DNA of 46,040 nt from a virus (lineage: Duplodnaviria; Caudoviricetes): IMG/VR virus record IMGVR_UViG_3300042863_000142, positions 1 through 46,040 of that record. One strand, given 5' to 3'. This document shows, one piece after another, positions 4,844 to 41,698 of the stretch; the stretch's first letter is position 1; each line of letters opens with the position of its first letter. The notes under the pieces are model-generated. The model had not been told where the DNA came from, did no database searches, and saw nothing but the letters and a program-made list of their open reading frames with translations. The position numbers were made by a program, and so were the translations under genes.

Positions 4844-5278
4844 ATGAGTGAAATCATTCTGCCACCGGGCATCAGCCTGCCAAAACACATCCAACCGATC
4901 GAGGCCCCAGACGAGAGCGCGGATGCAGAGGAGAAAGCGTCGGCCCTGCCGGTCCCAACAGGCTACAAGCTGTTGTGCATCGTGCCAGAGGTTGATGAAA
5001 AGATTGCTGGCACATCCCTCGACCTCGTTCGAGATGCTGCAACCATGCGAGCCGAAGAACATGCCACCACCGTGCTGTGGGTCATGGCAGTCGGACCAGA
5101 TGCGTACAAAGACACCGCCAAGTTCCCCTCGGGTGCATGGTGCAAACCCGGTGACTTTGTGCTCGTGCGCACCTACACAGGTACGCGTTTCAAGGTGTTT
5201 GGTAAAGAGTTCAGGGTTCTGAACGACGACCAAATCGAATGTGTTGTTTTAGACCCCCGTGGGTACACCCGCGCCTAA
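4844..5278 (+). CDS. groES: GroES/Cpn10-like co-chaperonin
   Basis: PTGYKLLC...VMAVGPDAY...CKPGDFVL...YTGTRFKVFGKEFRVLNDDQIECVV follows the GroES fold signature. Confidence 0.85.
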   Translation: MSEIILPPGISLPKHIQPIEAPDESADAEEKASALPVPTGYKLLCIVPEVDEKIAGTSLDLVRDAATMRAEEHATTVLWVMAVGPDAYKDTAKFPSGAWCKPGDFVLVRTYTGTRFKVFGKEFRVLNDDQIECVVLDPRGYTRA

Positions 5279-7305: not shown

Positions 7306-8238
7306 ATGGCTATTTCACGCGCACAACTGCTCAAAGAACTGCTCCCCGGCTTGAACGCTTTGTTCGGTCTGGAGTACGCTCGCTACGGCGAAGAGCACAA
7401 GGAAATCTACGAAACCGAGAGCTCTGAGCGCTCGTTCGAAGAAGAAACCAAGCTGGCCGGTTTTGGCGCTGCTCCTGTCAAGAACGAAGGCTCTGCCATC
7501 GCTTACGACAACGCGCAGGAAGCCTTCACTGCTCGCTACACCCACGAAACCATCGCTTTGGGCTTCTCCATCACTGAAGAAGCTGTGGAAGACAACCTGT
7601 ACGACAGTCTGTCTGCCCGCTACACCAAGGCTTTGGCTCGCGGTATGGCCTTCACCAAGCAGGTCAAGGCAGCTTCTGTTTTGAACACCGGCTTCTCTGG
7701 CGCTGCCCCCGGTGGCGACGGCGTGTCTTTGTTCGGCAACAACAGCTCCGGCACTCGTGTTGGTCACCCGCTGGTTGGTGGTGGTGTTAACTTCAACAGC
7801 CCAGCTACTCCTTCTGACTTGAATGAGACTGCACTGGAAAACGCAACGATCCAAATCGCTGCTTGGGTTGATGAGCGCGGCCTGCTGATCGCAGCCAAGC
7901 CTGTTAAGTTGGTGATTCCTCCATCGCTCATGTTCGTTGCCAAGCGTCTGCTTGACACCGAATTGCGCGTGGCTACCGCCGACAACGACATCAACGCGTT
8001 GAAGCAGATGGGCACCATCTCGGCCGGTTATACCGTCAACCACTTCTTGACCGACAACAACGCTTGGTTCTTGACCACAGACGTTCCAAACGGCCTGAAG
8101 CACTTCGAGCGCTCTGCCCTGCAGACCTCGATGGACGGCGACTTCGACACTGGTAACGTCCGTTACAAAGCCCGCGAGCGTTACAGCTTCGGCTTCTCGG
8201 ACCCGCTGGGTATCTTCGGCTCTTCAGGTTCGGCCTGA
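7306..8238 (+). CDS. Major capsid protein (HK97 fold, Mu gpT-like)
   Basis: 310 aa, strongly biased codons, AAGGAG RBS, KLVIPPSL and RYKARERYSFG motifs, followed by a terminator. Confidence 0.9.
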   Translation: MAISRAQLLKELLPGLNALFGLEYARYGEEHKEIYETESSERSFEEETKLAGFGAAPVKNEGSAIAYDNAQEAFTARYTHETIALGFSITEEAVEDNLYDSLSARYTKALARGMAFTKQVKAASVLNTGFSGAAPGGDGVSLFGNNSSGTRVGHPLVGGGVNFNSPATPSDLNETALENATIQIAAWVDERGLLIAAKPVKLVIPPSLMFVAKRLLDTELRVATADNDINALKQMGTISAGYTVNHFLTDNNAWFLTTDVPNGLKHFERSALQTSMDGDFDTGNVRYKARERYSFGFSDPLGIFGSSGSA

Positions 8239-8245
8239 TAAAAAT

Positions 8246-8274
8246 AAAAAGGGGGCTTCGGCCCTCTTTTTTAT
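8246..8274 (+). terminator. Intrinsic terminator, probably bidirectional
   Basis: AAAAA-GGGGGC-TTCG-GCCCTC-TTTTTT: GC stem, UUCG loop, flanking A and T tracts. Confidence 0.9.
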
Positions 8275-8302
8275 TGCGTCAGTTTAAACGCGATGGTATA
8301 TT
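8274..8302 (+). promoter_or_regulatory. Sigma70-type promoter with GTTTAAAC in the spacer
   Basis: TTGCGT (8274-8279), 17-bp spacer, TGn extension, TATATT (8297-8302). Confidence 0.65.
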
Positions 8303-8311
8303 TCAAACACT

Positions 8312-8384
8312 CCGGGCTTTCCGGTGTATCTGACAGTCCCGGCTGACGACATGCAGACAGATACGCCCAACTTGCATGTAAGGA
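8312..8384 (+). ncRNA. Candidate structured 5' leader RNA (double pseudoknot)
   Basis: Three crossing helices: 8312-8316/8338-8342, 8323-8332/8358-8367, 8349-8356/8372-8379. The last abuts the AAGGA RBS. Confidence 0.6.
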
Positions 8385-8391
8385 CCACATC

Positions 8392-8991
8392 ATGGCATTG
8401 ACCACATTCTCCGGCCCAGTCTCTTCCCTCAATGGCTTTATCGGTGGCACATCCGCCAGCCCAATTGAAGAAACAACTGCGGGCAACGTATCCGAGTTTT
8501 ACGTTACGACCTCAGCCGCTACTGGCGATACACGTTTGTCGTACAACCGGCTGACCTTTACCTCTACAGGTTCTGGCGAGACTATTCGTGCTTTGACCCG
8601 AGTAACGGGCGCTAACGGCGCTACAGGCGGCACAATTAACGGTGCTCACATCTCTACTTCAATCAACACGGGCGGCACAATCTCTGGTGCGGCTAACGCT
8701 ATTCGTGCAACCTTAGGAGGCTCCGTAGCTTCTCCCGGCGGTACTTTGGCTGTTCTGCAGTTGGACACAGATTATTCTGTTAACGCTACTTTGCCCGGCA
8801 CAGCTTCGTTTATTCGCGTGACTGACAGCGGCGCAAACACAGGGGAAGTTCCTTTGTTGATGAACATTGAAACAGCCCCCGCTGCTACGATTGCGCCTAC
8901 AGCAACCAGCGTGACTACTGTAGCCAAAGCAATCAAAGTGATGATTGGCGGCACTGTGTACTACGTTCCTGCGTACTCGACCTTTGCATAA
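8392..8991 (+). CDS. Hypothetical virion protein (possible head fibre/decoration)
   Basis: MALTTFSGPV N-terminus, Thr/Gly/Ala-rich, C-terminal IKVMIGGTVYYVP. Confidence 0.75.
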   Translation: MALTTFSGPVSSLNGFIGGTSASPIEETTAGNVSEFYVTTSAATGDTRLSYNRLTFTSTGSGETIRALTRVTGANGATGGTINGAHISTSINTGGTISGAANAIRATLGGSVASPGGTLAVLQLDTDYSVNATLPGTASFIRVTDSGANTGEVPLLMNIETAPAATIAPTATSVTTVAKAIKVMIGGTVYYVPAYSTFA

Positions 8992-32551: not shown

Positions 32552-35500
32552 ATGGCTGGACGCGATTTAAGCTCGGAACTCTTTGGCCCGGGTGAGGGTG
32601 ATTCACAAGGCCGCGATTTGAGTGATGAGCTGTTTGGCGCAAAGCCAGCCGCCAGAACCGTCACTGAAGCCGACAAAGAGCGCACCATAGGCGAGTCCAT
32701 CAAAGACGTTGGCGCTGGCCTTGTTGGTGGTCTTGGGAGCATTGTGCAGGTGCCGGGTCAGCTGTACGGCTTGGCCACTGGCGACTTCTCCAAGACAGGT
32801 CTCCTTGGTGCCGGAGAAAGACTCTCTGAGTACGGCGAAGAGATGAAGTCTGAGGGCCTCAAGGCCCGTGAAGCCGAACGCGCAAAGATCGTAGAGGAAG
32901 CCTCGAAGGAAGGCCAGTTTGCCGCGTTTAAAGCAGCCTTGGGTGAGACGATCACCGACCCCGGCCTGCTTGCTGGCTTCCTTGCGGAGCAAGCTCCACA
33001 GGTTATCCCCATGATTCTGGCCGGCGGTGGTGCCGGCTACATCGCCAAGCGTGGCGTGATGAGTGCTGCAGCCGCACGAGGTGCTGCTGTTGAGGCTGCT
33101 GAGCGTCTTGCCCAGAAGAAGGCCCTTCAGGCTGGCACAACCGGTGCCATTCAGACCGGCGCTGTCATGCAGGGCGCAGACATTGGCGCTGGCTCTTACG
33201 ACGACATCGTGGCCGGCTTGATTGAGCAGGGTGCTACCCCAGAGCAAGCCGCAGAAGAGGCTATCAACAAAGCCCGCCTTGCTGGCGTTACTGGCTATGG
33301 TCTTTCCGTTCTTGCCAACCGTTACTTACCCGGCGGTAAGGCGCTGGAAGAGATTCTGGCTGGCAAAAGGCTGGCCGGCTCTCGACTTGGCGGCGCAGCA
33401 CTGACTGGCCTGAAGGAAATTCCAAGCGAGAACATCGAAGAGGTCGGCGGCAGGATTGCTCAAAACATCGCAGCCCGAAGTGCTGGCCTTGACCGAGAAA
33501 TCCTTGAGGGAACCGGCGAGACTGCGGCCATGGCAACCCTTGGCGCTGCCGGTATCGGTGGTGCGGCTGGTGCTTTGTCTGTTCGCCCCGAAGCCGTGAA
33601 GGCTGGCCCAGATGAGTTTGACAAAGAGCTTGCGCAGTTCCGTCAAGAGCTTGGCCCTGAAGGGGATGCCCCGGCTCAAGTCCAAGAAGAAATCGACACA
33701 GGCATCGACGCAGGCGTTGAAGAGCAGGTTGCCGCAGCCCCCGTTGCCAAGCCTCCGGTTCAGCTTCCCGGTGGCTTTACGGCCACTGAGCGAGAGCTCA
33801 GCCGTGAAGTGGTGCCTGAAGCCTTTGGCATCTTCCCAGAAGGCGGCGGAAAGCCATTGGCAACCGTTGGTACCCAAGAGGATGCTCAGAAGAAGCTTGA
33901 GTCCTTGACCCAGATTCGTCAGGAAGAACAAAAGCGCCTGTCCGAAGAGTTCGACAAGATCAACAGCGGCATCTTTGCCGAGCAGCGCAAGCTTGAGGTT
34001 ATGGAGGCCACAGGCCAAGCCGACACGGATCAGTACGTACAAGCCAAGGCTGAGCTGGACCTCAAGGAACAGGAAGCCGCTGAGAAGCTGACCGACATCA
34101 GAGATCGGATCGCTGCCTACTCAACCCCCTTGACGTTTGCCCCCATGGGACAGCGCACCGCAGTCCAGAGCGAAGTCATTGTGAATCGTGGCGATGAGGT
34201 GGTGGGCGTCTTCCCGTCTTTTGAGGCAGCTCAGTCAACGGTGCAGCAGCTCGCCCCTGAAGAGTTTAAACAGGCAGATATTGCTGCCCGCACGCAGGCC
34301 GTTGAGGCTGTGCTCAAGCCCGCGTTTGCCAAGTTCAACTTGGGCGATATTGGTTTAAACATCGTCGAAGCGATCAAGACCGGCGGTGGCGGACGTGCAG
34401 ATGGGGCCTACGCTCAAAACCTTATTCAGATTGCCTTGGATGCGCCAGAACCCCTGCAGACCATGCGCCATGAAACTGTTCATGCGCTGAAAGAGCTTGG
34501 GTTCTTCACCAAACAGCAGTGGCGAGCTTTGACCGAGCAGGCAAACAAGACGTGGGTCAAGCAGTACCTTGAGGGCCAAGTCGCTGAGCTGAACGGTGTG
34601 CAAATGAGCCGCCTTGATGCCTACAAAGAGCTGGCCAAAGAACGCAAACTAAGCCCCCGTCAGTTGCGAGAAGAAATCATTGAAGAGGCCATCGCAGATG
34701 CCTTCGGCGCTTACGCTCGTGGAGCCACACCTCCTCCCGGCTTGATCGCCACCCTGTACAAGAAACTGGCAAGCTTCTTTGCAAACTTTGGCCAAGCCCT
34801 GCGCGGTGCTGGCTTTGAGTCGGCCGAAGACATCTTCCAGCGCATCGAGCGCGGTGATTTGAAGTCCAAGGCTCCAAAGAAGGAGGCCAAGCCTGTTGTG
34901 AAAGCCAAGGAGGCTGAAAAGGCTCCCGAGACAAAGAAGGCCGAAGCCCCAGAGGCCGAGGTACGAGCTGCGCAAGAGAAAGCCAAGAAAGAAAAATATA
35001 GCCTTGCCGGCACAGGCGTTCCAATGTCTACGCGAAACCTCATGGAGCAACAAACTCCTATTGCGCAACAAGACCTCGGTTTAAACACAGAAGCCGGTCG
35101 TAGCGGGACCAACAACGTCCGGGATATTGCCAAAGCCTTGAACCGACAAACCCTAGACCAGCTTGGCGCAATGAAGCGCAACAAGCTTACGCAAGACGAT
35201 TCCACAATGATTTCGGAGGCCATAGCCGACGAGGTTGCCTACCAACTACAAACTTCATCCAAGACCGGAACCGGTTTGGGTTGGTACTCCCACAACTATC
35301 CAAATGCCGTCAAGCGTCTGGGCAAGCGCTTCCCTGAGCTGAGCACAAGCAAATACGCACGTTCCGTTTTCTCTGCGCTTGTGGCTGTCACCTCCAATGG
35401 TGAGCGCGTTACCAAGAACATTGATAACGCCATCAAGCTGTACGCCGACTTGCGCAAGGGCAAACGTTTGGTTGTCATGGGCAATCGTCGTGCAACCGCT

Positions 35501-38500
35501 CTTGAAAATAACCTGCAAGTCATTCAAGACTTGATGGCCGAGCACGGCGAGAATTTTGAAAAAGTTTTGCTCAAAGAGATTACCGTCAGTGAAATGAACG
35601 CTCGTCTGCGCAAGATGGGCAAGAAGGCTGATGGCAGCTATCTGGCCAACACAGTGGTGCCAGCGGCAGCGGTTTATTTTGGTCCAAAGCTGGGGGCGTT
35701 TTACGCCAACCTGTCGGGTTCTGAGGGCTACCTGACCATGGACTTGTGGTGGACGCGCTCCATTAACCGTATGCGTGGCTTGCTAATCCCCAAGGCCACC
35801 AGCGCATCTATTTCCAAATTCCGGGACATGATGGATAGCCCCGACGCAACTCGAGATGAAGTTGTTGCCGCGACCATACCCTTGCGCAACAAGTACGAGG
35901 AGTACGGCTGGAACTCTGAACTGGAGCATTTGGCTGGAGCCAAAGAGCCGTCTACCAAAGCCGCCAAGCCAGCTTGGTTTGAGAAGGCTGAGGCGGCGGC
36001 TGGAGATGCCTACGAGCAGCTGTTGTTTGAACACAATCTTGAGAAGATGGCAAACACCATCTACAAGAACGAGTTTGAGATGCTGGAGGAGGCCCCGTTT
36101 ACAGCCACCGACCGCAAGTTCATGTACGACGCAGCACGCAAGGCCCAAACGTTGTTGCGTAAAAATGGAGTTGACCTGAGTCTTGCTGACATTCAAGCTG
36201 CTCTTTGGTACTATGAGAAACGCCTGTATGCAAAACTTAGCGGGAGAAAAGCAGATGACATCGGATACGAAGAAGCAATCATCGCCCAAGCCAATCAGGG
36301 TTCTGGACGAGCAAGACCAAGTGTGGTCTTCGATAAAAGAACTGACCGTGGGGATGACTCCCGAGGAGAGGTCTCTGGCACTGAGGCAGTTCGTGGAGAG
36401 CCTACCAGAGGCGCAAAGCTAAGCCTCAAAAAGGGGGTCGTTGCCGAAGTGGCCCCCAATCCTGACCACATCTCGGCAGAGAAGTGGCGGGAGATGACTC
36501 CGACTGAGCGTCTTGGCGCAACCAGAAGCGTTGCCAACAAAGTCATGTCGTCTGTGTTCTCCGAGCTTGGTCTGCGGGGATACAGCTACAGCTTCTCTAC
36601 TGGCACATACGAGGGTGAGGTCAACCCCAACATCATCGTTGAAGCACCGCAAGGCGCCACGGAGCAGGAGCTTGAAGAGCTGGGCCGCGTCCTTGGATAC
36701 GTGCTTGACCAGAAGGCCATGGTCGTCTTTGATGAGGACAACAAAACGTCCGGCAGTCAGGCCGGCTTTGTAAAGGTTGTCGTACCGGATGACATGACCG
36801 CAGAGCAGTTTGATGAGTTGCGCCAGCACATCGCGCAGAAGGTTCCACAGGCTGACGGTGACACGTTGCGTAATGGAGCCTTGCTGTACGGTAACTTCTC
36901 TGCCTACAATGACAACGTTGACACCCTGACTGATGCTCAGTACCAGAAGGCTATCGTCAAGGCTGTTGAGTCGTTTACATACGATGGAGTCATCGATGTA
37001 TCCAAGCCTGAGACGTTCCACAGCTCACTCATTTGGCCTAAGACGAGAAGCGACTATTTAAAGGAAACACGCTATGGCGACAGTTCGAGAGTTCAAGGAG
37101 AAGCCGGGGCAGATGTTCGGGGGCAAGGGAGCCGCCGTCTTCAGGCCATTTCAGAGGAAGGAATCGCCCTCAGAGACCGATGGATTGACGGCCGAGGAGC
37201 GGCTCGCCTCGGAGGTCGAGAGCGCGGTAATGCGGTTGACTTCGGCAAGCCAACAGCTGAATACGGAACCCCAAGACAAGGGTCAGTAAGCGCCACAGGC
37301 ATTCACTTCAGCAAGCAGCAGCGGCCCGAGATCAGCTCAGGCTTCTACGGCACAGGCTTGCGCGGTCTGGAGCGTGAGCGTCTTGCTGAAAAGGAAAACG
37401 CAGACATCCGCGACCGCATCTACTTCTACGTGGACAACGGCAAGGGCGTGACGCCTGAGTCGGGTGTTGGCGGCATTCCCCATGTCATCAAGCTGAACAA
37501 CCTGTACGACACTTCGGCGGACCCCCTACAGATCGTCAAGAACATCAGGGGTGAAAGCTCTGCCGACAGGGCCAGCAAGCGGGAGCGTGCCATCAAGAAG
37601 GCTGGCTTTGATGGCTACTTGGTGAAAGACCCAATAGCCTCACAGGATTACGCGCTTTTGATTGGTAAGCATGCCGTCAAGACGGGCAAATACAGCCTAA
37701 AGAACGTCCGCTTCCCCTCGGTCAAGGCCGTCAAGGAAGCCGTTGCGCAAACAGAGGTGCCAGACACACCTGAGTTTAAACGCTTCATCGCAGGCAACCA
37801 GTGGACAGAAGCCGACGGCAAGCCGACGGTGTTCTACCATGCCACCGCTCGTGAGTTCCTTGAGTTCACCCCCGCAGGTCAGTCCCAAGCCATCTTCCTT
37901 GCGACAACCCCAGAGGAGGCTGAGACCTTCGGCAGTGCTGCCGAGGACAAGCTGCGCCGGGAGATTTATGAAAAGCTCTTGAACAAAGATCAAAAGCTCT
38001 CCTTCTTCCAAGGCGTTGTAGATGCTCAAGTGAAGAAGGGCGCGATCACCGAAAAGCAGGGCAGGGAGTTCATGCGTCAAGTTGACCGCAAGGCTCCGAA
38101 GTACGGCGACTTTGGTGACATCGAGCAAGAGGTCTATGACGCTCTCCTTGACCTGTCCCCTACCCGCATGTCGATCATGCCTCTATGGGCTCGTGCCGAG
38201 ACTCCATTCGACTTCGAGAACGAAGAGCATGTGGAGCAGGTCATGCAGTGGGTCACCAACAACACGGACTACCCGCAAGAGTTCCCAGAGAAGTGGCTGA
38301 GTGGCCTCAAGGGCCGCATCAAGCAGGGCTTGTGGCAAGCGATCGAAGACAAGCGCGTCCAGATGGCTCTGCGCAGGCTTGGCTTTGACTCCTTCACTGT
38401 GCGCGAGAACCGCAACTCGCCCAAGAACTATGCGGTCTACCAGCCCGAGCAGGTCAAGTCCGTCACCGGGAACTCCGGTGAGTTTGACCGAGCAGTTAAG

Positions 38501-41500
38501 AACATCAGCTACAGCCTGCGCAGCTTCCGTAAAGAAGAGTTGCCGCAAAAGGCACGCGACTACACCCTGCCGGCAAACACCTTGCTGTACCACGGTGCAT
38601 ACAAGGAGCGTGCTGACCGCATCGAAGAGATGGGTAGCGTATTGCTGTCCCGCCCCCCAATGCGTGTGAGCGGTGGTTTCACGGCCGAAGGTGATTTGAT
38701 CTTCTTTGGCGATGAGAATACAGCCCAAAATTTTGCCAGCAACAAGGCCGATCCACGGGCTGTGCAAGATGCGCGTGATGCTGGTGTTGAACGTCTTCCG
38801 GGCAAAGTGTTTGAGACTGCGACCGATCGTCCTTACGAACTGATCAACCGCGATTACAAGATGAACGCCAAAGAAGCTAAGGCTTTGACCAAAGCTCTCG
38901 GCCTTCCTGATTACAAGGCTTTGAGCGCAGGTCTTCCATTGGAAGTCGCGGTGACTCGAGCCATTGATTACGACAACAGCAAGATTGATCGGTATGAGGT
39001 CACAAGACGCACAGGTCAAGGCAAAGAAAAGATCAGTGCACCTTGGCCCGTCATCTTCCGCACCCTTGGTGTGGATGGTTTCTACGATAGCTTAGGGGTT
39101 GCTTTAACTGCGAACAACGGCATCAAGCTGGTTGGCAAAGATGGAAAGCTGGAGAAGTATAGCTTGCCAAGCATCCCAGCTGCGGCACAGGTCCGCATCG
39201 AAGAAACGACCACCGTCCGTCAAGAGAAGGGCTTTGCTCGCCGGATCGTCGAGGCCATCTCTCCAAAGAGTGTGGCCCACTTCCGCGCTGAAGCGCTCAA
39301 CAGGTACAACCAGCTCTCCGTTTACGACAAAAAGCTTGCGGAGAAGATGGGTGGAGCAGCCCTTCTCGCTGACCAGAGCGCAGAGTCTGCTGCACTGATG
39401 TCTGATCTGGCATCTGGTGTGGTTGCATCTGCCATGGGCACGGGCAACCGTACCGGCGGCATCCCCGTCCTGCGCAACGGCATCACGACCATCGACTCAA
39501 GCGTCAAAGGCTTGGTTGCATCGCTCGCCCCTCTTGCTGCTTACGGTGACCCGGTAATCTATCGCCGGTACCAGTACTGGGCCATGGTCAAGCGTGGTGT
39601 ACGTTTAAACGCTCAAGGCAAGAATGTCGGCATCACTGCAGCGGATGTGGCGTTCGCCAAGATGCTTGAGCAGAAGCACCCAGAGTTTGTCAGCGTTCAG
39701 AAAGACCTGATCAAGTTCAACAACGGCTTGGTCAAGTACATGGTTGACACGGGCGTCCTCTCCAAGGGCCGTGCGGCTGAGTACACCAAGTACGCCGACT
39801 ACGTCCCCTTCTATCGCCAGATGGATGGTGAGACCACCGTGGGTCCAAACCTCTTCCAGTCGATCTCTGGTGTCAGACCACCAAAGAAGCTCAAGGGTGG
39901 CGATGCCCCTCTTGCAGACTTCCTCGAGACCATGGTGCGCAACACCGCCGCAGCCATTCAGGCTGGTGCGAAGAACTACGCCGGCCAGCGAGCCATCAAC
40001 GTGGTTCAGCAGGTCAAAGCTCCGGGCATGGGTGCAACTCGTTTAAACAAAGTGAGCAACGCGCCCGACGTCATCAACGTGCTGGAGAATGGAGAACTGG
40101 TTTCATACCAAACTCCCGACGAGCTGCTGTTGTATGCGGTCAAGAGCTTGAACCTTTCGGACATCCCGTACCTGAGCTTCGTGTCTGCGCCTGCCGACCT
40201 GCTGCGCAACTTGGTGACCAAGGACCCCGGCTTCATGATGGCCAACTTGTTGCGTGACTCGCTTTCAGCCTACGTGACTTCGGGCCAGAAAATGACCCCC
40301 GTAGTAGATACGGTCATCAGCTTCGGCAAGGCTCTGGCCGATAAATCCCCAGCCACCCGAGCGCTGCTCGACGCTGGCATCATCAGCGGCTATGACGCTG
40401 GCGACATTGAGTCTTCCGGCATCCGTCTGGAGGAGGACTTGGCCAAGAAGGCTGGCAAGCGTAGAGACTCCATCTTCCTTCGCCCGTTTAAATCGGTGTG
40501 GGATGGATTGGAAGCAGGCACAACCGCGTCTGATGCAGCCACCCGAGCTGTGATTTACGATCGCGTCCTCGCAGAGACGGGCAACGAAGCAGAGGCTCTG
40601 TTCCGCGCACTGGAGGTCATGAACTTCCACCGCAAGGGCGGCTCTTCCTTGATCCGAATCCTGACCGCAGCTGTGCCGTTCTTCAACGCTCGTCTGCAGG
40701 GTCTTGATCTGTTCTACCGCGCCTCCACTGGCAACATGAACACCAGCGATGCCGCAGCCATCAGGAACAAGTTCTGGGCTCGTGGCATGACCATGATGGG
40801 CCTGTCTGTTGCCTACTGGTTCATGGTCTCCGATGACGAGGAGTACAAGAAGCAGGAGCAGGAGACTCGGGACAACAACTGGCTCATCCCATCTTTGGGT
40901 ATGCGAATCCCAATCCCGTTCGAGGTTGGTGTGCTGTTTAAAACAATTCCAGAGCGGATTGCTGCGTACACGTTCGGTGACGATACCGGTCAAGACCTGC
41001 GAGACTCGCTGGCCCGTAGCGCTGTTTCAACGTTTGCATTCAACCCAATCCCGCAGACGGTCAAGCCGGTTTTCGAGGCTGCGTTCGACTTCAACACGTT
41101 TACATGGCGTCCAATCCTGAGTGAGGGCATGAAGGATGTTGATCCGCAGTTCCAAGTTGGACCGGGCACATCGTCTGTTGCCAAGGGTATTGCTGGTGCG
41201 CTGGGCCTGTCCCCCATCAAGGTGGACCACGTCATCAAGGGCTACACCGGAACCATGGGCATGTACGCAATCGACACCATCGACATGGTGACCAATCAGT
41301 TCAGCGACACACCCAAAGCCACCAAGCGCTTTGAGCAGCTTCCAGTGATCAAGCGTTTTGCTCTTGACCCAGAGGCCCGTGGCAACGTCACCGAATACTA
41401 CAAGCTGAAGGACTCAGTGGACGGTGTGGTGCGGACAATGAACTTCTTGGAGAAGCAGCAGGAGTCGGAGGAGTTTGTTGATTACCTGAAGAAGAACCAA

Positions 41501-41698
41501 GGAACCTTGGCCTTCAAGGACTACATCCGCGACACCGAGAAGACGATGAAGGAGTTGAGGGATGCCCGTAACGCGATCCGCATATCCACGATGAGTGGGG
41601 ATGAGAAGCGTGATGCTTTGGTTGAGATTGGACGGGCGGAGAGCGCGATCACCGGACAGATTCAACGGATCAAGCAGGCTATCGCTTCAGCGCAATGA
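32552..41698 (+). CDS. Giant polyvalent virion protein (zincin metallopeptidase, HhH/glycosylase-like, ART-like domains, LPD38-like C-terminus)
   Basis: 3048 aa. HETVH at 34469-34483 plus EEAIAD; GWY/PKLGAF/TMDLW/QAALW; VFYHAT...AIFLA...YQPEQVKS; RIPIPFEVG in the C-terminal region. Confidence 0.85.
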   Translation: MAGRDLSSELFGPGEGDSQGRDLSDELFGAKPAARTVTEADKERTIGESIKDVGAGLVGGLGSIVQVPGQLYGLATGDFSKTGLLGAGERLSEYGEEMKSEGLKAREAERAKIVEEASKEGQFAAFKAALGETITDPGLLAGFLAEQAPQVIPMILAGGGAGYIAKRGVMSAAAARGAAVEAAERLAQKKALQAGTTGAIQTGAVMQGADIGAGSYDDIVAGLIEQGATPEQAAEEAINKARLAGVTGYGLSVLANRYLPGGKALEEILAGKRLAGSRLGGAALTGLKEIPSENIEEVGGRIAQNIAARSAGLDREILEGTGETAAMATLGAAGIGGAAGALSVRPEAVKAGPDEFDKELAQFRQELGPEGDAPAQVQEEIDTGIDAGVEEQVAAAPVAKPPVQLPGGFTATERELSREVVPEAFGIFPEGGGKPLATVGTQEDAQKKLESLTQIRQEEQKRLSEEFDKINSGIFAEQRKLEVMEATGQADTDQYVQAKAELDLKEQEAAEKLTDIRDRIAAYSTPLTFAPMGQRTAVQSEVIVNRGDEVVGVFPSFEAAQSTVQQLAPEEFKQADIAARTQAVEAVLKPAFAKFNLGDIGLNIVEAIKTGGGGRADGAYAQNLIQIALDAPEPLQTMRHETVHALKELGFFTKQQWRALTEQANKTWVKQYLEGQVAELNGVQMSRLDAYKELAKERKLSPRQLREEIIEEAIADAFGAYARGATPPPGLIATLYKKLASFFANFGQALRGAGFESAEDIFQRIERGDLKSKAPKKEAKPVVKAKEAEKAPETKKAEAPEAEVRAAQEKAKKEKYSLAGTGVPMSTRNLMEQQTPIAQQDLGLNTEAGRSGTNNVRDIAKALNRQTLDQLGAMKRNKLTQDDSTMISEAIADEVAYQLQTSSKTGTGLGWYSHNYPNAVKRLGKRFPELSTSKYARSVFSALVAVTSNGERVTKNIDNAIKLYADLRKGKRLVVMGNRRATALENNLQVIQDLMAEHGENFEKVLLKEITVSEMNARLRKMGKKADGSYLANTVVPAAAVYFGPKLGAFYANLSGSEGYLTMDLWWTRSINRMRGLLIPKATSASISKFRDMMDSPDATRDEVVAATIPLRNKYEEYGWNSELEHLAGAKEPSTKAAKPAWFEKAEAAAGDAYEQLLFEHNLEKMANTIYKNEFEMLEEAPFTATDRKFMYDAARKAQTLLRKNGVDLSLADIQAALWYYEKRLYAKLSGRKADDIGYEEAIIAQANQGSGRARPSVVFDKRTDRGDDSRGEVSGTEAVRGEPTRGAKLSLKKGVVAEVAPNPDHISAEKWREMTPTERLGATRSVANKVMSSVFSELGLRGYSYSFSTGTYEGEVNPNIIVEAPQGATEQELEELGRVLGYVLDQKAMVVFDEDNKTSGSQAGFVKVVVPDDMTAEQFDELRQHIAQKVPQADGDTLRNGALLYGNFSAYNDNVDTLTDAQYQKAIVKAVESFTYDGVIDVSKPETFHSSLIWPKTRSDYLKETRYGDSSRVQGEAGADVRGQGSRRLQAISEEGIALRDRWIDGRGAARLGGRERGNAVDFGKPTAEYGTPRQGSVSATGIHFSKQQRPEISSGFYGTGLRGLERERLAEKENADIRDRIYFYVDNGKGVTPESGVGGIPHVIKLNNLYDTSADPLQIVKNIRGESSADRASKRERAIKKAGFDGYLVKDPIASQDYALLIGKHAVKTGKYSLKNVRFPSVKAVKEAVAQTEVPDTPEFKRFIAGNQWTEADGKPTVFYHATAREFLEFTPAGQSQAIFLATTPEEAETFGSAAEDKLRREIYEKLLNKDQKLSFFQGVVDAQVKKGAITEKQGREFMRQVDRKAPKYGDFGDIEQEVYDALLDLSPTRMSIMPLWARAETPFDFENEEHVEQVMQWVTNNTDYPQEFPEKWLSGLKGRIKQGLWQAIEDKRVQMALRRLGFDSFTVRENRNSPKNYAVYQPEQVKSVTGNSGEFDRAVKNISYSLRSFRKEELPQKARDYTLPANTLLYHGAYKERADRIEEMGSVLLSRPPMRVSGGFTAEGDLIFFGDENTAQNFASNKADPRAVQDARDAGVERLPGKVFETATDRPYELINRDYKMNAKEAKALTKALGLPDYKALSAGLPLEVAVTRAIDYDNSKIDRYEVTRRTGQGKEKISAPWPVIFRTLGVDGFYDSLGVALTANNGIKLVGKDGKLEKYSLPSIPAAAQVRIEETTTVRQEKGFARRIVEAISPKSVAHFRAEALNRYNQLSVYDKKLAEKMGGAALLADQSAESAALMSDLASGVVASAMGTGNRTGGIPVLRNGITTIDSSVKGLVASLAPLAAYGDPVIYRRYQYWAMVKRGVRLNAQGKNVGITAADVAFAKMLEQKHPEFVSVQKDLIKFNNGLVKYMVDTGVLSKGRAAEYTKYADYVPFYRQMDGETTVGPNLFQSISGVRPPKKLKGGDAPLADFLETMVRNTAAAIQAGAKNYAGQRAINVVQQVKAPGMGATRLNKVSNAPDVINVLENGELVSYQTPDELLLYAVKSLNLSDIPYLSFVSAPADLLRNLVTKDPGFMMANLLRDSLSAYVTSGQKMTPVVDTVISFGKALADKSPATRALLDAGIISGYDAGDIESSGIRLEEDLAKKAGKRRDSIFLRPFKSVWDGLEAGTTASDAATRAVIYDRVLAETGNEAEALFRALEVMNFHRKGGSSLIRILTAAVPFFNARLQGLDLFYRASTGNMNTSDAAAIRNKFWARGMTMMGLSVAYWFMVSDDEEYKKQEQETRDNNWLIPSLGMRIPIPFEVGVLFKTIPERIAAYTFGDDTGQDLRDSLARSAVSTFAFNPIPQTVKPVFEAAFDFNTFTWRPILSEGMKDVDPQFQVGPGTSSVAKGIAGALGLSPIKVDHVIKGYTGTMGMYAIDTIDMVTNQFSDTPKATKRFEQLPVIKRFALDPEARGNVTEYYKLKDSVDGVVRTMNFLEKQQESEEFVDYLKKNQGTLAFKDYIRDTEKTMKELRDARNAIRISTMSGDEKRDALVEIGRAESAITGQIQRIKQAIASAQ
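36255..36422 (+). CDS. Nested +1-frame small protein, 55 aa
   Basis: GGGAG 8 nt before the ATG. Helical amphipathic product; the host frame here is low-complexity R/G/D linker. Confidence 0.55.
   Translation: MTSDTKKQSSPKPIRVLDEQDQVWSSIKELTVGMTPEERSLALRQFVESLPEAQS
37074..37289 (+). CDS. Nested +1-frame small protein, 71 aa
   Basis: AAGGA 8 nt before the ATG. Protein-like product; the host frame here is R/G-rich linker. Confidence 0.55.
   Translation: MATVREFKEKPGQMFGGKGAAVFRPFQRKESPSETDGLTAEERLASEVESAVMRLTSASQQLNTEPQDKGQ

Follow-up and report, generated by a model that had tools for sequence, protein, structure and literature searches.

In the phage genome analysed here, the gene that follows the major capsid gene is preceded by a leader that folds into five helices, the last of which takes up the first bases of the ribosome-binding site. 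This five-helix leader is a real and widespread RNA from aquatic phages, and its knotted form is uncatalogued. Judged from sequence, the element is a knotted variant of Mu-gpT-DE (RF03012), with the same core and the same slot but lying outside the Rfam definition of that motif. The Mu-gpT-DE motif itself belongs, as a leader, to the gene that follows it, rather than being a 'downstream element' of the capsid gene. Perhaps the leader is a translational off-structure for the downstream gene, probably one for capsid decoration, with a phage protein as the most likely factor that keeps it shut; we give this reading a probability of about 45%. By the window we mean the whole stretch of DNA that was analysed, the 46,040 nt of IMG/VR record IMGVR_UViG_3300042863_000142 (Caudoviricetes).

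The window carries terminase, portal and major capsid genes followed by a long run of virion genes on the same strand. The major capsid protein gene (7306..8238, plus strand, 310 aa) is the upstream neighbour of the leader, and its product matches PHROG 371, major head protein (E 6e-19), and Pfam Phage_capsid_4, as well as Mu-like_gpT at 23.5 bits (cut-off 20.1). On its 3' side lies a hairpin of the intrinsic-terminator type (8251..8272, plus strand) with a 6-bp stem, a UUCG loop and a U6 tail, in keeping with the capsid terminator that an earlier note on this DNA had placed 5' of a promoter. The stem, 8251-8266, was read from the sequence, and the scanner listed a hairpin on the minus strand only. 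Comparable hairpins are found 3' of the capsid gene in relatives, and we infer from its sequence that the post-capsid hairpin acts as a terminator. Elsewhere in the window, a GroES-like co-chaperonin gene is found within the head module (4844-5278; PHROG 3188, E 4e-7), and an ORF of 3048 aa (32552-41698) lies 3' of a DNA-ejection-protein gene and matches only unknown PHROGs, over its last 700 residues.

A predicted sigma70-type promoter (8274..8302, plus strand) comes after the hairpin and is composed of a weak -35 at 8274-8279 (3/6 matches), a 17-nt spacer and a -10 at 8297-8302 (TG plus 5/6 matches), with a predicted transcription start near A8309. The earlier note had called this promoter good; its -10 is extended and its -35 weak, the consensus scanner made no promoter call at 8274..8302, and the promoter is supported by positional conservation in relatives. 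Among 310 leaders, 197 have TAnnnT 6-11 nt 5' of the first paired base, with a peak at 7-9 nt, and TTG is found at the -35 position in 92 of these 197 -10-bearing leaders compared with 48/1182 shifted controls. The RNA starts no more than 14 nt from the terminator stem in 36/310 leaders and 34 of these are without a -10, therefore the element can also work within a read-through transcript. The terminator hairpin often doubles as the promoter -35, as TTG is inside the hairpin in 43 of the 92 TTG-bearing leaders (for example in loci L003, L016, L042 and L056).

Three interlocked helices had been proposed for the leader, and all three are real. Helix A (5 bp, 8312-8316 with 8338-8342), helix B (10 bp, 8323-8332 with 8358-8367) and helix C are present together with AAGGA, with A crossing B and B crossing C, but two further helices of 3 bp each, D (8334-8336 with 8343-8345) and E (8371-8373 with 8380-8382), had been overlooked; all five are on the plus strand. 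Helix B closes the core. Helix A forms a pseudoknot into the loop of D, the 6 nt of which carry the 3' strand of A, and helix C forms a pseudoknot into the loop of E, which is made of the 3' strand of C. The 3' arm of E is formed by the first three bases of the Shine-Dalgarno sequence (AAGGA, 8380..8384, plus strand, 7 nt before the start codon). Helix C had been given 8 bp, of which six pairs are kept (8349-8354 with 8374-8379) but the outer two are not conserved: pair 8355-8373 forms in 25/66 aligned sequences and G8356 is part of a near-invariant GA. The presence of helix E explains why these last two pairs are not kept.

The strands are arranged in the order 5' strand of A, 5' strand of B, D closing the 3' strand of A, 5' strand of C, 3' strand of B, and E closing the 3' strand of C, with the Shine-Dalgarno sequence as the 3' arm of E. 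This gives two near-mirror modules, each a 3-bp hairpin with a 6-nt loop pairing back upstream, joined by the 10-bp helix B, and 27 pairs in total within 71 nt (54 bases paired). That such pairing would be unlikely by chance was borne out by dinucleotide shuffles of the 83-nt leader, since none of 3000 gave an interlocked set of at least 5, 10 and 8 bp; a relaxed set of 4, 8 and 6 bp was reached in 15/1500. The conserved junction bases (8333..8357, plus strand) are A8333, C8334-G8345, G8336-C8343, A8346, C8347, G8356 and A8357, which are invariant or at least 90% conserved in the alignment, and the core is intact in 72/76 capsid-selected leaders; the RF03012 consensus has the same letters at these places. 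The computed stability of D and E alone is marginal (-1.0 and +0.5 kcal/mol respectively). An alternative 5' hairpin, P0 (8312-8316 with 8320-8324, plus strand), competes with helix A and is limited to certain lineages: it is found in 64/196 knotted members (33%, the swapped-partner rate being 17%), some of them showing compensatory forms, and none of the 79 members with the commonest A variant has it.

Covariation in the post-capsid leaders of relatives, which had been suggested as a check, is present in all five helices. The capsid-selected set was made of the best 80 of 601 loci scanned with the capsid protein, and the leader was found in 76 of these, 70 by a topology script and 6 more by covariance model; the remaining four end 41-1461 nt past the capsid gene, either short of the leader gene or within an inserted one. 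A sequence-only MAFFT alignment of 66 rows contained the window and 65 of the 70 loci, one window-identical copy and four duplicates having been excluded. In this alignment 88% of the cells of helices A to D are paired compared with 72% when shuffled and 31-40% in slid controls, and 21 of their 26 pairs are changed on both sides. For all five helices, again in the sequence-only alignment of capsid-selected loci, the figures are 89.3% versus 72.7% shuffled and 32-42% slid, with 296 two-sided changes versus 85 shuffled, and none of 500 shuffles reached as high a count; the sequences are related, so these counts are not independent events.

The helices were also examined one by one, using a swap test in which each strand's own partner is compared with the partners of other members. 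The swap tallies, which are inflated by kinship, were 196/198 for helix A, 198/198 for helix B and 168/169 for helix C, and in the 66-sequence alignment 4/5, 10/10 and 6/6 of their pairs respectively are changed on both sides. In helix C, 40 distinct 5' strands are seen, and almost every one has a partner that matches it. Helix D is paired in 66/66 rows, a set whose loci were selected by a topology script that demanded a paired D, and its middle pair is AU in 39, UA in 21, GC in 5 and CG in 1. Helix E was not assumed beforehand and emerged from a mutual-information scan of 148 members anchored only by the core, A and C, in which the three pairs of E ranked next after 18 pairs of A to D. All three pairs of E are formed in 147/173 knotted members versus 19% with swapped partners, in forms that include CUU/AAG, CUC/GAG, GUG/CAC and GAG/CUC; in the MAFFT alignment 2/3 pairs are compensatory and the outer pair fails in 19/65 rows. 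A wider set of 311 distinct leaders had been collected by the core pattern and the downstream peptide, many of them through scans whose patterns already fixed parts of D, A or C. In one pattern scan 34 of 120 loci had a capsid match, and the 86 without one were discarded. A single copy of the element is present in 5/5 genomes.

The earlier note could not match the RNA to a named family, and Rfam searches indeed gave no match in the window or in 20 knotted loci, but the core and the slot are those of Mu-gpT-DE. Membership of RF03012 is set at 49 bits or more with the Rfam model; this model gave no matches in the window, in the 20 knotted loci or in 6 further knotted loci, and over five genomes its best score was 12.4 bits, with all hits at other positions and none at the motif. 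The likeness was found in the core, where window positions 8330-8360 match the arrangement helix, A, CAG...CUG, AC, 8 or 9 nt, GA and closing strand, a consensus read from weak alignments of the model, and in the slot, where the window RNA has a Mu gpT-like capsid gene on one side and the next start codon on the other. The nested 53-nt fold of Mu-gpT-DE is not that of the window form. Polynucleobacter-1 (RF01718) exceeded its cut-off in none of the five genomes and had no hit at the motif.

Mu-gpT-DE is an orphan motif of 53 positions, typed as sRNA in Rfam, and the supplement of Weinberg et al. 2017 is reportedly where it made its first appearance. Its short form has a 4-bp outer helix holding the Shine-Dalgarno sequence, a 5-bp inner stem and a 9-nt loop. 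The Rfam form thus has 9 nested pairs (4 + 5), compared with the 27 pairs, five helices and two pseudoknots of the window form, which differs from it by a 10-bp B, a 3-bp D and the added helices A, C and E. The short form lacks A and E and uses the Shine-Dalgarno sequence as the 3' strand of B, so that both forms end on the Shine-Dalgarno sequence. In ZWD and CaCoFold the motif has 11-13 pairs, the pairs added by CaCoFold being listed as loop and non-Watson-Crick types with no new pseudoknot (PMC7657543 Table S1, available in part). The term 'gpT' is absent from the available part of the main text of Weinberg et al. 2017. The available tables of Fremin et al. 2023 (PMC10690425) gave no match, and the RNA may be among the 8,495 candidates of that work, unnamed. 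Our literature search found no description of the knotted form and no function for Mu-gpT-DE.

A scan for the RF03012 signature found 120 loci. A relative of the window capsid gene is upstream in 117, among them all 79 whose flank measures 400 nt or more, and downstream the same N-terminal arm is encoded; 12 of the 14 tested pass the Rfam cut-off. The covariance model of the knotted form, R1, found 0/14 short-form loci at E <= 1. As neither model finds the other form, the case for homology comes from the core, the slot and the intermediates and not from a score. An intermediate form is seen in 27 distinct leaders, in which A and a long B are kept, a GCCA segment is as in the short form, and the partner of C is lost. 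A longer predicted hairpin over the Shine-Dalgarno sequence was present in 27/27 members without the 3' strand of C, and the mean hairpin energy over the Shine-Dalgarno sequence was -3.6 kcal/mol in a 29-member set compared with -0.6 at 13 capsid-gene starts. In a FastTree phylogeny of 179 capsid proteins, which took in all knotted or variant members with a full capsid protein and 37/66 short-form members, supported capsid clades contain both short and knotted forms, the pattern one would expect if the forms are interchangeable alleles.

We also considered a pairing between GCCA and the start codon in the short form; a bias towards GCU as the second codon was rejected as evidence for it, given that the capsid gene presents the same bias (56/65). 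A U-U mismatch is found in the GCCA/start-codon register of 16 members, and the case for this pairing is one of complementarity only. In two short-form loci, L217 and L254, the leader gene starts with TTG and a UGGC complementary to GCCA is kept.

The earlier note had inferred a cis-regulatory RNA, and there is good support for an RNA that acts in cis and is linked to the ribosome-binding site, as the Shine-Dalgarno sequence is inside the last helix or no more than 3 nt from it in 172/173 knotted members. In 124 it overlaps with C or E, in 48 its start is 0-3 nt past E, and in one it has no match. The RNA ends 4-16 nt before the start codon in all 173 and always abuts the ribosome-binding site of the same gene. 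Furthermore, 700-980 nt are inserted after the capsid gene in 19/76 loci, and in these the RNA remains with the downstream gene. Logan contigs of relatives, from which strand, ends and level are unreadable, cover the motif in 4/4 and 3/4 runs, and one contig of 1220 nt, with the same restriction, spans from 8338 through the leader gene; 15 RNA runs contain small shares, and none of this was counted as evidence of expression. The inserts themselves sit between the capsid terminator and the RNA and have a promoter-like region of their own (for example in loci L002, L009, L012, L018 and L045), and several unrelated inserts use one post-capsid site. By eye, the starts of the insert ORFs resemble GIY-YIG or HNH homing endonucleases.

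The leader gene (8392..8991, plus strand) encodes 199 aa with a conserved N-terminal arm, and its stop overlaps the next start. The protein has no PHROG, Pfam or PDB sequence match, and its AlphaFold model is unusable (pLDDT 50, pTM 0.26). An atlas search returned only unnamed viral clusters. The 199-aa protein shares only the first 12 N-terminal columns with a sister family that occupies the same slot, and the profile of that family matches the solved cement proteins 7EEL (E 3e-5) and 7DN2 (E 5e-4). The annotation of this slot is 'cement protein' in DSL-LC04; in Pag-Yong1 it reads 'minor capsid protein'. The 199-aa protein is therefore a probable capsid decoration or cement-slot protein, where 'decoration protein' is drawn from the slot, given the 12 shared columns and the lack of a usable model. 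Leader-gene products range from 61 to 313 aa and belong to several families, with the N-terminal arm common to 218/223, in part by construction because the arm was used for collection. The slot is likely a swappable capsid-display module. Its products present a constant arm of about 12 residues fused to unrelated bodies, some cement-like and others Gly/Thr-rich and fibre-like.

If the leader is a translational off-structure, a phage protein would bind its conserved core. Helices D and E are too weak alone, so pairing of the Shine-Dalgarno sequence would depend on the whole knot forming, and a partner binding at the B/D junction would tip the balance to OFF, with P0 as what may be a competing open state in the lineage of the window. 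The junction bases look like a binding surface, and the set is kept while all of the stems turn over. The likeliest partner would be the free leader-gene product, by way of its conserved N-terminal arm, or else the capsid protein, a choice that is a guess, and autogenous control would then act when capsids are saturated. This off-structure reading is consistent with the covariation of five helices that place the Shine-Dalgarno sequence in or near the last one, with three architectures that reach it in three ways (through E, through the 3' strand of B, or through a longer hairpin), and with an element that is single-copy and follows the downstream gene through insertions. However, the 48/173 members in which the Shine-Dalgarno sequence is beside and not inside the last helix indicate that occlusion is not universal, and a product conserved over only about 12 residues is a thin basis for specific RNA binding by the protein that would hold the off-state.

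There is a precedent in the autogenous repression of T4 gene 32 at a phage leader pseudoknot (PMC3014915). That operator consists of one pseudoknot of two stems, lies 67 nt upstream, is followed by an AU-rich stretch without structure, and is bound by a ssDNA-binding protein. The window double pseudoknot differs in pairing the Shine-Dalgarno sequence itself, before a structural gene; a far-upstream pseudoknot with an AU-rich spacer is not what was found, as the last helix is 4-16 nt from the start codon.

A more tentative proposal is that the symmetric double pseudoknot senses the state of capsid assembly or a host metabolite via its core and gates the Shine-Dalgarno sequence, Mu-gpT-DE being its stripped-down form. 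It is possible rather than probable; if true, it would define a class of switch peculiar to phages that governs virion stoichiometry and is present in thousands of phage contigs from lakes and oceans, a cultured SAR11 phage among them.

The leader could be without any trigger, a knot that fixes a low and constant rate of initiation and may shield the 5' end of the mRNA, and in this case it would set the ratio of decoration to capsid protein. The fold does start 1-4 nt past the predicted transcription start in most members and fills the whole leader, and there is no alternative fold conserved family-wide, given that P0 is found in 64/196. We nevertheless consider such a static device rather unlikely, because a brake needs only a hairpin and it would leave unexplained why junction bases are kept across short and knotted forms. 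The nuclease-blocking knot mentioned in the earlier note is weakened in its purely 5'-end version by the 34 leaders without a -10 that are directly behind the terminator, hence not at a primary 5' end.

A final pseudoknot helix that covers the Shine-Dalgarno sequence is known from the preQ1 classes and SAM-II riboswitches, and the window RNA has this in common with them, although its topology is different and it has no metabolic context. We regard as unlikely a small-molecule or ion riboswitch unique to these phages, with the B/D junction as pocket and E as expression platform. A compact double pseudoknot with some nine conserved junction bases, the Shine-Dalgarno sequence in the final helix and marginal D and E would suit it, as would hosts spread across several classes of Proteobacteria, which fit a universal ligand. 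However, the RNA is found in one copy and only before one structural gene, has no metabolic gene context and no Rfam riboswitch match, and tolerates changes in the core in 4/76 loci and in HTVC027P.

It is quite improbable that the leader works like put of phage HK022, as a nascent RNA that binds host RNA polymerase and causes read-through of the same-strand virion operon of about 33 kb. HK022 put is described as two stem-loops at two early promoters acting on RNA polymerase, with putL about 70 nt long directly behind its promoter (PMC9378689). The window RNA has this length and position, and 197/310 leaders have a -10 at 6-11 nt; it also heads a long same-strand gene run, and a conserved host target would explain the conserved core. 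In contrast to HK022, the window RNA is single-copy, heads the virion operon and ends on the Shine-Dalgarno sequence, an ending of every form that this model leaves unexplained, and downstream terminator-like sites are near chance (29 versus 22 +/- 5 and 26 versus 19 +/- 4, both strands).

Rfam types Mu-gpT-DE as sRNA, and a self-contained fold beside the capsid gene, with its own promoter in 197/310, might suggest a stand-alone small RNA or a virion or packaging RNA processed from the leader. This is very unlikely, as there is no terminator between RNA and gene, the RNA ends within 4-16 nt of the start codon in 173/173, and it follows the downstream gene through insertions.

Hammerhead ribozymes have CUGANGA, stem II, GAAA and stem III with a UH site, and the HDV ribozyme has a 3-bp helix inside a double pseudoknot, an invariant unpaired catalytic C before the last P2 strand, and a P1 3' strand that follows P3. 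The small ribozyme inferred in the earlier note, whether hammerhead-like for the CUGACGA after helix A in the window or HDV-like for its 3-bp helix within a double pseudoknot, is scarcely credible, since the second stem is followed by UAAG and not by GAAA, 72% of knotted members have A in place of the U of CUGA, the 3' strand of A is inside the loop of D, the HDV catalytic position (8354) is base-paired and varies, with AU, CG and GC at about equal frequency, the short form has no helix A, and there is no Rfam ribozyme match.

Every architecture found covers or adjoins the ribosome-binding site of the downstream gene, and an orphan Rfam motif gains a directly testable mechanism; our literature search found nothing on RNA-level control of capsid-decoration stoichiometry. 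With 71 nt, 54 of them paired, and two mirror modules, the leader is a good structure target. The phage family is very abundant, with about 13,000 stretches estimated in IMG/VR for the capsid patterns. Among cultured phages, the knotted form occurs in the Pelagibacter phage HTVC023P (E 6e-11) and in DSL-LC04 (E 1e-9), and the short form in CRP-901 and CRP-902; with both forms present in cultured members, an assay is feasible. The motif was not found in Pag-Yong1, the Alcaligenes phage, Caulobacter phage RW and two spring phages. Hosts from MAG matches were set aside, as 46 loci were in unrelated bins and likely mis-binned. Three records, OQ594354, OL906435 and PP438419, are all of 65,014 bp with the same capsid identity and three different cyanobacterial hosts, and are probably one phage.

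A diverged knotted form was found in HTVC027P (L498:2668-2750) and 023Pt_psg01 (L502:2638-2728). It has a shorter D, a 6-bp A that is compensatory between both phages, and a helix C that overlaps the Shine-Dalgarno sequence, and in these phages the RNA is separated from the capsid gene by one or two small genes.
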